Part shown: one piece after another, positions 52,401-55,207 of the stretch
Layout of the letters: every line of letters starts with the position of its first letter
Numbering within the stretch: position 1 is the first letter of the stretch
Origin: Eledone cirrhosa
Lineage: Eukaryota
Assembly: GCA_964016885.1 (NCBI GenBank)
Contig: OZ024750.1
Coordinates: 23,808,001-23,872,000, forward strand
DNA: 64,000 nt
Direction of reading: 5' to 3'
Notes under the pieces: model-generated
The model's input: the letters and a program-made list of their open reading frames with translations, nothing else
The model's database searches: none
Told to the model about the DNA's origin: nothing
Position numbers and translations under genes: made by a program

Positions 52401-55207
52401 TCTCTTGGAACATTGATAAGAGTAAGATTGGTTACATTTCTACAGAGTCTTCTTGTCTTATCAGAGAGAGAGGTTCGTTTGGAAGGAATTTTAAAAGAAA
52501 ATAGATAATAGATATAATTTAATTTAGTTCCTTCCATAGGCTGAACCTTTAGAAAATTAAAAATCAATTGTCTAAAGTTTGATTTACTGAATAAACGAAA
52601 AGTAAAACTAGGCTTCCAGTTAGTTTTAATCTTTCAAGTCTCAAGTAACGTTCTTAAACAACAAGACGCCTTGGATTTGGTCTTTAAGAACGAATTATGA
52701 ATATGTCATATATATATAGGTAATTCTTCGTTTTAAAATCAAACAACTTCCGGTAATTTCCGTGAATGGAAATGACAATTTAAAAAAAAAATTTATTTCA
52801 TAAACATAATCATAATCTACACTTTCGAAAATGTATCTTTGCAAAATATACATTAGTAAGGATTACTACACATACACACACATAAAGGATCCTGCAACGT
52901 GGACGTTCAAACATTACATTCAAGGATAACAAAGTTGGATGAGAGAGGAAGGGAGGTAGACCAACTAGCTGATAGATAGACAGACAATGGGTGATTTTCA
53001 CATACACAAGCCCACAGATGTTGAAGGAGGCGGTCGGTGCAGTCTATTAAAATCGATAAGTAACTGGTACTTATTTTATCCACCACCTAGAAGCAGATTA
53101 AGCTTACATGGGGCACCTTGAAGAAATTTTCATCGAGATCCTTACATATTATTTATGGTAGCAAAAATAATTTGGGATCCCCGGTTACAACCCAGTCAGA
53201 CCACCCCTGAAACCGCAACTGCACAGAAGGGGAGGGGGGGGGTAGTCTAATAACTTCTTAACGTGCTATAATTTAGCAGAAAATATCTAAAAGCAGATTT
53301 GTTAATTCAAATATTTATAGTATCTTTACTAGTGGAAATCTGCAGTGTCAAGGACTTAAGTTCTTAATGTGAGCGCAGTCATAGTACTGTCTTGTACTTT
53401 TGAACCATGTCTCGCTAATGTGGTTTCACGTGGTACAGGACATTAAGAGCTAAATCAACTCCAGTACTTGGCTGCTCCTTATATTTTATCGCCCCCGCCC
53501 GAAAGGGCGAAAGTCAAAGCTGGCCAACCAACATGTAGGTATGACACCTAACAATAAATATTGACAATGTAAATTGTTTAAGAAGAATCAATAGACAAAA
53601 CAAATTATATTAGAATATACTAATTAAATTATTAAAGAATAATTAGTGACGTAGACAGATATATACAAATTTCTAACTGTAATTTTGAGGATTAAAAAAT
53701 ATATTCAACAAATCATCTCCTCCCCCGCCACATATATATTTATAGTAAAAGGCCAACCGTTGAGGAAATAACACCACACGCCCGGCCGGTCCCTGTATAA
53801 AGAAAAGTAAACCTTTTCCAAATTTAAAGTTTTTTTAATAATATTTCATTGTTTTTTTAGGTTTACCTTCTGAGGAGCTCAGGCTGTCATAACGGATTGT
53901 CCTCAGCGAAATGTACATTACGGATTTTAATAAAACCATTGATTTATAAAAATCCGTAATGTACATTTCGCTGAGGACTATCCGTTACGACAGCCTGAGC
54001 TCCTCAGAAGGTAAACCTAAAAAACAATGAAATATATATATATATATATATATATATATATAGGAGAAAGAGAGAGATTAATGTTACTGATGTAGATGTA
54101 TTAAATTCCGTTAGCTAGTATATAAAATTCACATATGTGAGGTAAGTAGATTTATCAAGATAGCAATTTGATGTAAATGTAACAAGGAATGGTAATAATC
54201 ACACAGATGTCTTCTTGTAAAGGATTCTAGAGAAATGTAACCCCATAGTTACTACACATCGTTAAAGATTTCGTCCTGAAAGGACGGATAAGGGACATAT
54301 GGATCACTCCTCGGAAGCATGTATGTTATTTAACGAAGCTTTAATAAATCTTCATGCATGTGGGGTGACTCGTTGGCAGCTATGTAAGAGAGAGAGAGAT
54401 GGGCGGTAAAATGTTGATAAGAGGAATCATCATCATCGTAAACTGCGAAACCATCAAACACCAGTTGTGAACAGAGCAGAGCCAACGAAGGAGCCCTCTC
54501 TATGTGGTCACTCGATCTGGTAGAAATAGCAATCAAATCTTCCTTATATCATCTTTAAAAAAAAAAAAGAAAAAAAAATCGAGGTGGGACATATTGAATA
54601 ATGTAGTCGTGGATATGTAATACACGAGAACATTACAGGGTGGTCATGCCTGGAATACCTTTGCGCACAGTTCTGATCCATTGGAACTGATTAAGGACTA
54701 AATAACAATACAGGGTGAACAAGCAATATGTTTTCGTCAGTGTAAGATCGTAGCAGCATGTATTAATAGTACAACAAACCACTCTCACAGCGTTACGGTG
54801 GGTGAAGTTAACATTCAACAGAATGAACAGCTCTGAAGGATGGGAATCAAACAGATTGAGATAGCTAACCATAACGAAAACAAGACAACTGTTGTATTAA
54901 CACAATAACAAGAACTTAATGTGACAAATCACGATATAAATATGCGAAAATATTGAGGTTTGAAAAGCATTCAATCAATGAGAATTAAGATTAATTAACG
55001 TAAATGTTTAGATAATGAGTGGAGAGTACATATTTATCTGCAACTTGTACGTAGCTGGCAAGAAACAGAAGCTAAACTGTGTGAAAGTTGATAGTTGAGA
55101 CGGTGAAAAGTTGCTAAATAAAAGGCAAGAGTCATTGAAAAAAATGTCAAGCTCACCAGGTCCACAACATCCTCAGCTTTATCCATTAATTCCTGCTGTC
55201 GCGGCAT
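33983..55207 (-). CDS. SURF4: Surfeit locus protein 4 (ER cargo receptor, Erv29 family), complete, 4 exons, 270 aa
   Basis: Exons 55207-55157 ([17 protein letters not shown]), 37270-37007 ([29 protein letters not shown]...), 35588-35545 ([14 protein letters not shown]), 34436-33983 (NLALAGG...[38 protein letters not shown]). Phases are consistent and there is a C-terminal dilysine ER-retrieval motif. Confidence 0.97.
35545..35588 (-). CDS. SURF4: SURF4 exon 3
   Basis: 44 nt, [15 protein letters not shown]. Confidence 0.93.
36620..36839. mobile_element. piggyBac-type MITE (about 200-220 bp), representative copy
   Basis: TTAA|CCCTTTAGCATTTA...TAAATGCTAAAGGG|TTAA. Other copies at about 9694-9923, 15304-15511, 25294-25499, 27790-27992, 39121-39305, 39809-40003, 42124-42277, 42654-42800, 44903-45105, 47111-47305, 50170-50366. 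Confidence 0.85.
37007..37270 (-). CDS. SURF4: SURF4 exon 2
   Basis: 264 nt, phase 0/0, [17 protein letters not shown]. Confidence 0.95.
39809..40003. mobile_element. piggyBac-type MITE nested in an older repeat
   Basis: Perfect TTAA TSDs at 39805 and 40004; the host repeat is seen uninterrupted at about 27075-27135. Confidence 0.85.
40701..40820 (-). pseudogene. 5S: 5S rRNA pseudogene
   Basis: Reverse complement CCATATCATGTTGAAAACACCTGTTCTTATCTGATCACTGAAATTAAGCAATG...GGTAGTACTTAGATAAGTGACCGC...GGTGCCGTAAGC is colinear with metazoan 5S over about 120 nt; CpG decay; single copy. Confidence 0.85.
43845..44010. repeat. 41-bp tandem repeat x4
   Basis: TACCAAACTGTACACTACACTACAATATATTATTACTATAA. 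Confidence 0.9.
46554..46800 (+). mobile_element. Penelope-like element RT (thumb region) fragment
   Basis: [48 protein letters not shown] matches the PLE motif S.HP.H.K.SIPYSQFLRL.R.CS....F......M...F..RGYP. Confidence 0.8.
48990..49340 (-). mobile_element. Restriction-like-endonuclease (CRE-like) non-LTR retrotransposon 3' fragment
   Basis: Minus strand reads [24 protein letters not shown] ... [24 protein letters not shown] ... [19 protein letters not shown], matching decayed RPDG..WD.TC / KY / P.AVET.G / QRGNA motifs. Confidence 0.7.
50787..50905. repeat. Foldback palindrome (same family as 18519-18631, opposite orientation)
   Basis: CGACGGCTGAGCTCTGGCCGTCTCAACAGCTAGAT / ATCTAGCTGTTGAAATGGCCGGAGCTCAG; the flank 50905-50985 matches 18445-18520 in reverse. 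Confidence 0.8.
53866..53923 (+). ncRNA. Minimal hammerhead ribozyme motif, left arm of foldback
   Basis: CCUU-CUGAGGA-GCUCAGG...CCUCAGC-GAAA-U(GUAC)A-UU-ACGG. Confidence 0.6.
53954..54011 (-). ncRNA. Minimal hammerhead ribozyme motif, right arm of foldback
   Basis: Inverted copy with intact CUGAGGA/GAAA core and extended stem II (CUGUC/GAUAG). Confidence 0.6.
55157..55207 (-). CDS. SURF4: SURF4 exon 1
   Basis: ATG...[17 protein letters not shown]|gtgagc; resembles the SURF4 N-terminus. Confidence 0.88.

Follow-up and report, generated by a model that had tools for sequence, protein, structure and literature searches.

Penelope-like elements (PLEs) carry minimal type I hammerhead ribozymes with a small palindromic helix III in their pseudo-long terminal repeats (pLTRs). 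These pLTRs are mostly found as solo remnants, and their hammerheads are sometimes paired on opposite strands, 100-700 bp apart (PMC4209133). Inverted repeats of 5'-truncated PLE copies with a tail on one side have been described, and (TA)n is a favoured target in some clades (PMC8557442). Penelope-like families are also known in Octopus vulgaris (PMC13282606). Here, we analysed 64,000 nt of Eledone cirrhosa DNA (assembly GCA_964016885.1, contig OZ024750.1, positions 23,808,001 to 23,872,000, forward strand). This whole stretch is called the window, and coordinates below are positions in it. Within intron 1 of the gene SURF4, the window holds a palindrome with a hammerhead motif in each arm. 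It is probably one copy of a multicopy hammerhead repeat, likely a solo pLTR of a PLE, whose terminal 97 nt were likely duplicated by folding back and whose RNA is predicted to be an inert hairpin. The palindrome is mostly ordinary, a hammerhead repeat of likely PLE derivation that has decayed and folded back locally. The element and its immediate surroundings comprise the following features.

53731..53744, no strand: short TA-rich run at the left insertion end, likely half of the target (sequence; read depth climbs directly to its right).
53751..53840, plus strand: left unduplicated part of the repeat copy, the 5' part of the putative pLTR (depth; contig starts).
53807..53860, plus strand: candidate 54-nt GT..AG intron, predicted from the sequence, ending inside distal stem I.
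53841..53938, plus strand: left arm of the palindrome (inverted-repeat alignment).
53860..53938, plus strand: type I hammerhead motif, left copy, with its core at 53870-53876 and 53908-53911 and the palindromic stem III at 53911-53918.
53939..54035, minus strand: right arm of the palindrome, which carries the final 97 nt of the repeat again in inverse orientation (alignment; reads).
53939..54017, minus strand: type I hammerhead motif, right copy, with its core at 54007-54001 and 53969-53966.
About 54024-54017, in the right arm: polypyrimidine-AG, sense on the SURF4 pre-mRNA strand.
54032..54062, no strand: (AT)15.5 microsatellite abutting the right arm, likely the insertion target (tandem-repeat call).
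37271..55156, minus strand: SURF4 intron 1, about 17.9 kb, with the exon 1 boundary inferred (ATG at 55207, GT at 55156).

The inverted repeat spans 53841-54035 (195 bases). Its arms of 98 nt (53841-53938) and 97 nt (53939-54035) meet at 53938/53939 and are 95.7% alike across 94 aligned columns. They differ by five substitutions (53889, 53898, 53929, 53935 and 53937) and by a one-T indel in a T-run. A first-pass annotation of the window had placed the palindrome at 53841..54034 with 92-bp arms. The palindrome is real and the left end was exact, while the right end and the arm lengths are corrected to the values given here. The whole palindrome folded at -146.6 kcal/mol (z -27), a stability equalled in 0 of 200 shuffles.

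The conserved type I core (CUGANGA, GAAA and UH, with U as H17) was matched in both arms. CUGAGGA lies at 53870-53876 (+) and 54007-54001 (-), and GAAAUGUACAUU lies at 53908-53919 (+) and 53969-53958 (-). Each arm has its core on its own strand and the two cores face inward, with putative cut sites after 53919 in the left hammerhead and after 53958 in the right. Proximal stem I has three of four pairs in this copy (CCUU/ACGG), and a distal helix of 5-6 bp can be drawn. Stem II contains a C.C mismatch and a bulge, with 11 pairs in the right arm and an additional U.U mismatch in the left. In stem III, AUGUACAU is self-complementary, and the 10-mer duplex has an energy of -8.8 kcal/mol. The first-pass annotation had described a long bulged stem II, a palindromic loop and a three-of-four stem I, the last just as found here. 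It had also claimed an intact core on each strand, which holds for the core letters of both arms and is limited to those letters.

A relaxed type I hammerhead descriptor, composed after the element had been seen, gave four matches in the 64-kb window (both arms, 942-976 and 19248-19297), representing three independent events. On 100 shuffles the same descriptor gave a mean of 0.08 matches and a maximum of one, with one match in 8 of the 100. A second hammerhead on the antisense of the arms (CUGAGGA at 53971, plus, and 53906, minus) was considered and rejected: this CUGAGGA is the complement of the 3' strand of stem II, and its downstream partner is GAAG, not GAAA. Matches to the arm were no longer than 28 nt in the 84 loci returned by a metagenome scan with a 17-mer, and these loci were taken as chance. 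Judged by their sequence, both hammerhead motifs are genuine and belong to a real family.

The family was examined by aligning reads from four of the six runs listed, namely two contig sets (X1 and X2) and two restriction-site-associated DNA (RAD) libraries, to 53436-54035 at 80% likeness. Summed contig depth, which is not a copy number, was 9583 and 8385 over stem II versus 13 and 9 in the single-copy flank. Across the left extension it was 100-410, rising from about 53756. The repeat is clearly multicopy. Many contig pieces begin at 53751-53760, which leaves the start of the repeat uncertain within 53745-53760; the family begins about 90 nt left of the palindrome, directly after the TA-rich run. 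On the other side, loose ends behind 53934 numbered 15, 10 and 9 among the records listed for X1, X2 and X4, with a median of 37-53 nt. Other copies thus continue about 50 nt past the point where the arms stop and meet. Loose ends before 53939 were seen in 46 and 75 RAD reads from one locus, and reads of another copy match to 53939 and then continue into family sequence. The dispersed repeat that contains the hammerhead is at least about 230 nt long. Since the family runs past the centre and starts about 90 nt to the left, the palindrome is not the family's unit. Among the six joints listed from other copies, we interpret four as head-to-head inversions and two as deletions, with none tail-to-tail. 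One RAD locus of the family is truncated at the TA run. A separate short repeat lies left of the element at 53456-53495, with a depth of 73-94 versus 9-13 in the flank.

We then compared the hammerhead across copies; the variant counts of this paragraph are X1 depth units among the variant rows listed. Most other copies have the stem I pair that is missing here, through 53868 T>G (222 of 294). In the core, 53870 C>T converts C3 to U (131 of 297), and U3 occurs together with A8 in one X2 loose-end consensus built from eight contigs. U3-A8 covariation has been described for Schistosoma PLE hammerheads (PMC4209133). In stem III, G-C gives way to A-U in about a fifth, with similar frequencies for 53913 G>A (91) and 53916 C>T (106), each out of 484. 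A subfamily with a loose end behind 53912 keeps the self-complementary stem III and has a longer distal stem I. At 53907 most of the family has U, which turns 10.1-11.1 into a wobble pair, and in 70 of 484 the cleavage triplet becomes AUA, the A17 variant, through 53919 T>A. These results indicate that the hammerhead is maintained at the family level, with the core and stem III kept or co-varying and stem I restored. The first-pass annotation had staked its proposal on core conservation among genomic copies, and the reads agree with it on this point. What it overlooked was that the element likely comes from a PLE, that the repeat extends 90 nt further to the left and that similar palindromes lie elsewhere in the window.

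The motif resembles the minimal hammerheads of PLEs (Cervera and de la Pena 2014, PMC4209133) in its long helix II, short helix I and small palindromic helix III, with the palindrome at positions 15.2-16.2 and loop 3, and in its G10.1-C11.1 pair, as in the metazoan minimal form. The U3-A8 family variant, the dispersed solo copies and the opposite-strand pairs are further likenesses, and such opposite-strand pairs from PLEs are already published there. The 75-bp intron of Drosophila virilis Penelope begins 46 bp after the start of the element (PMC2377424) and ends at helix I (PMC4209133). In the present family, the candidate intron 53807-53860 begins 47-56 nt after the family start and its end likewise maps to helix I; its donor letter G53807 is altered in 53 of 421 depth units.

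Insertions with inverted pLTRs from endonuclease-bearing (EN+) PLEs (Arkhipova et al. 2013, PMC3846280; Craig et al. 2021, PMC8557442) offer a second comparison. As in those insertions, a shorter inverted copy stands beside a longer one, and the palindrome lies in an AT-rich or (TA)n target. The 5'-truncated copies and head-to-head pLTR junctions of EN+ PLEs were found in other family copies (four of the six joints listed), and the classic head-to-head form also in window neighbours, which have a one-sided tail. The hammerhead lies within a dispersed repeat, as that of EN+ PLEs lies in the pLTR. EN+ PLEs have a 30-40 bp tail at one end, to which the continuation of median 37-53 nt beyond the arms may or may not correspond. 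Unlike the usual EN+ form, the SURF4 copy is tail-to-tail, with the 3' ends at the centre and without the family 3' continuation; tail-to-tail is the less frequent form (PMC3846280). Animal non-LTR retrozymes (bioRxiv 10.64898/2026.07.22.740005) are similar in being non-coding, PLE-related and based on a dimer-requiring type I hammerhead. However, retrozymes form head-to-tail tandem arrays that give same-sense dimers, whereas the palindrome has one sense copy per strand, and repeat searches of the window found no tandem array of hammerhead units at the palindrome. On this comparison, PLE membership is likely, not proven.

The arms themselves suggest how the palindrome arose. Both carry G53894, where the family has T in 9746 of 9784 depth units, and both carry T53868, which is rare elsewhere in the family. 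Because these rare changes are common to both arms, the arms would derive from one template. Changes against the family majority at 53898 (left) and 53988 (right) are private to one arm. The pattern points to fold-back duplication of one already decayed copy as the likely origin, though shared changes of this kind could also result from gene conversion between the arms. In such a sequence of events, a PLE enzyme would have inserted a pLTR copy with the candidate intron, the hammerhead and the 3' continuation into a TA-rich target. The inserted copy would have gained rare changes, including G53894 and the change at 53868 that breaks a stem I pair. A nascent strand would then have folded back at the AC-rich tract just past stem I, copied itself for about 97 nt and, at the (AT)n tract, switched back to its template, with loss of the roughly 50-nt family 3' continuation. 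The arms would since have diverged by the five substitutions and one indel.

A close rival is that the fold-back took place during insertion, through PLE self-priming. Self-priming on the sense strand by the PLE reverse transcriptase (RT) is a step proposed in PMC3846280, and tail-to-tail repeats are the exact prediction of sense-template self-priming in that paper. Both arms end at one AC-rich point of the family, and the Anolis PLE RT starts in an AC-rich stem-loop (PMC11167929). However, self-priming would explain the shared changes at 53868 and 53894 only if the source copy was itself a rare one or gene conversion followed, it has no tail-to-tail counterpart among the six joints listed, and the left copy reaches 90 nt further than the right. 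We regard self-priming during insertion as possible but somewhat doubtful, and lean modestly towards the fold-back of an aged copy.

The compact inverted repeat beside (TA)n, together with the several TA-flanked palindromes in the window, would also suit a TA-targeting fold-back or a DNA transposon of the miniature inverted-repeat transposable element (MITE) type, with hammerhead-like sequence in its inverted repeats. Against this, the family is not palindromic: its copies pass the centre, begin about 90 nt beyond the left end of the palindrome, are variably truncated and form head-to-head joints, and no second copy of the palindrome is present in the window. Shared terminal inverted repeats, sought as a MITE trait, were not found, as the family ends differ from the palindrome ends. 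The read alignments largely refute a MITE-type origin, which is very improbable.

SURF4 lies on the minus strand, with Pfam PF02077 matches (E 8e-72 and 2e-34) in two of its exons. From the inferred exon-1 donor (55156) to the start of the right arm is 1121 nt, in agreement with the placement about 1.1 kb into intron 1 given by the first-pass annotation. That annotation was also right that any read-through transcript contains one sense hammerhead copy and then its antisense. It went on to propose a working switch in SURF4 pre-mRNA, in which the RNA folds either as a self-cleaving hammerhead or as a silencing duplex. The intact core letters in both arms are consistent with a switch, as are the self-pairing of the stem III palindrome at the energy given above and the order of transcription, in which the sense copy comes first and has a short co-transcriptional window of up to about 110 nt. 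However, none of the prefix lengths tested gave the hammerhead fold a probability above about 2e-8, and the full hairpin gave 4e-76. This fold was less stable than the ensemble by about 107 kcal/mol in the complete transcript, whichever strand was folded. In SURF4-strand transcripts that end ahead of the antisense arm, the difference was 11-14.5 kcal/mol, and it grew from 115 nt. For trimmed arms the difference was 7.3 and 10.6 kcal/mol, versus 1.4 and 3.6 for the window's two other hammerheads.

The stem I mismatch of this copy, which has no counterpart in most family copies, also speaks against a switch, and no sign of locus-specific conservation was seen. In addition, a 2-bp stem III with a palindromic loop requires a same-sense partner, and PLE minimal hammerheads did not cleave as monomers and cleaved only slightly as dimers (PMC4209133). 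Since its second core is on the opposite strand, the palindrome cannot provide this partner within one RNA. The proposed choice between hammerhead and duplex is not supported, as the full hairpin is strongly favoured and the lone arm already disfavours the hammerhead; we consider a working switch highly unlikely.

According to the folding model, the palindrome RNA is likely a stable intronic hairpin that covers the element's splice acceptor, whose letters were more than 98% paired. In SURF4 pre-mRNA, the right arm would be made first and would then pair with the left arm. This pairing would block cleavage and mask the acceptor, and the hairpin would serve as a passive substrate for enzymes that bind or edit double-stranded RNA. 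Inverted Alu pairs give rise to intronic double-stranded RNA of this inverted-repeat kind, with a long pre-mRNA hairpin formed from repeat sequence. The palindrome would resemble them as a long pre-mRNA hairpin and likely passive editing substrate. Unlike inverted Alu pairs, which are two insertions, it would stem from the local fold-back of one copy.

Several observations weigh against the reading of the palindrome as a folded-back, inert PLE hammerhead repeat. The hammerhead call is weakened by the cleavage triplet, which is AUU rather than the preferred GUC, and by the ordinary stability of the isolated arms (z -0.16 to -2.13). Rfam gave no hammerhead at the palindrome, either at the gathering score or at E<=10, and its only matches there were to generic hairpins of the miRNA type, far under their gathering scores. 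With respect to the PLE origin, a scan of the six frames of the window for RT and GIY-YIG motifs gave 0 matches, and Pfam searches of the 62 of 512 stop-free frames that lie near palindromes found no retroelement family. The defining open reading frame of full-length EN+ PLEs, with a telomerase-related RT and a GIY-YIG endonuclease, would be expected to be missing beside a solo pLTR. The unpaired nucleotide between 9 and 10.1 that is common in metazoan PLE hammerheads (PMC4209133) is absent, with G10.1 directly after A9; the motif was therefore filed as a PLE-type hammerhead and not under the metazoan minimal consensus. The orientation of the palindrome is opposite to the usual PLE one (PMC3846280). 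As to the inertness of the RNA, nearest-neighbour energies omit core, tertiary, dimer and protein contributions and therefore rank copies without proving inactivity; the Anolis PLE hammerhead cleaves only with protein (PMC11167929).

The reads have limits of their own. X1 and X2 are from one sample, possibly the source of the assembly, and only loose-end consensus lines show which variants sit together on a molecule. None of the contigs listed bridges the centre of the palindrome, and the source runs are one sample, which would fit a fold-back artefact of the assembly or library. Such an artefact is almost certainly not the explanation: the arms differ at five positions and by an indel, including the arm-private changes at 53898 and 53988, and three runs of that one sample contain 0.76-0.92 of the words of 53300-54600.

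The window holds further hammerhead palindromes, which are typical cases that belong to other families. At 19191-19567, a second twin-hammerhead palindrome is head-to-head, with arms 96% alike; the core of its minus arm is intact (19297-19248), the plus arm has one core change, its right end abuts (TA)36 and its left arm continues. Another head-to-head palindrome at 18705-19039 has a 48-nt tail on one side, to (TA)n. This tail is shared with a solo copy of the same family that has a full hammerhead at 942-976 (-). The 942-976 motif is the best-formed hammerhead of the window, with a 5-bp stem I, a bulged G, a 5-bp stem II and a fold 1.4 kcal/mol above the ensemble, and it carries the bulge between 9 and 10.1. 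It is a better candidate for cleavage assays than the SURF4 palindrome. At least two other hammerhead palindromes in the window are thus head-to-head, and the SURF4 copy is unusual only in being tail-to-tail.

Other palindromes and motifs were also observed. Close to the centre of a TA-flanked inverted repeat at 23745-23851 lies a decayed core that resembles a hammerhead, and 21913-21937 (-) holds another minimal motif of hammerhead-like form. Palindromes without a clear hammerhead core, several of them TA-flanked, are found at 55-595, 18519-18631, 23915-24130, 24134-24229, 50787-50905 and 10724-11286; those beginning at 18519, 23915 and 50787 have a short motif in common near their ends. Ten letters just past the (AT)n tract of the SURF4 palindrome (54062-54071) equal the outer end of the 23915-24130 palindrome, and another element may end in the same microsatellite. 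Within SURF4 intron 1, a divergent 5S rRNA match at 40703-40821 (-) is probably a pseudogene or retrocopy, as is a divergent U2 snRNA match at 14264-14457 (+). A frame at 17333-17536 (+) with a Hyd_WA/Tectonin propeller match (E 4e-9) is probably an exon of a neighbouring gene. The frame at 14631-15017 (-), which had no Pfam match, we take to resemble the C-terminal end of an RTE-type long interspersed nuclear element protein.

Our literature search found no paper on tail-to-tail hammerhead palindromes, and the supplements of PMC4209133 and PMC8557442 may contain such cases. Tail-to-tail copies bear on which strand the PLE RT copies and on how far the host tolerates sense-strand ribozymes and splice acceptors in introns, and neither question can be settled by one decayed locus. 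It is a long shot that the tail-to-tail fold-back represents recurrent, selected disarming of sense-strand PLE ends in genes, or a direct fossil of sense-strand PLE self-priming. Were the disarming reading true, the antisense arm would seal the ribozyme and the splice acceptor in SURF4 pre-mRNA. The analysis adds one uncatalogued family of PLE-type hammerheads that Rfam missed, with covariation in the core and stem III, and shows that hammerhead-bearing palindromes are common debris in this genome, with at least three in 64 kb.

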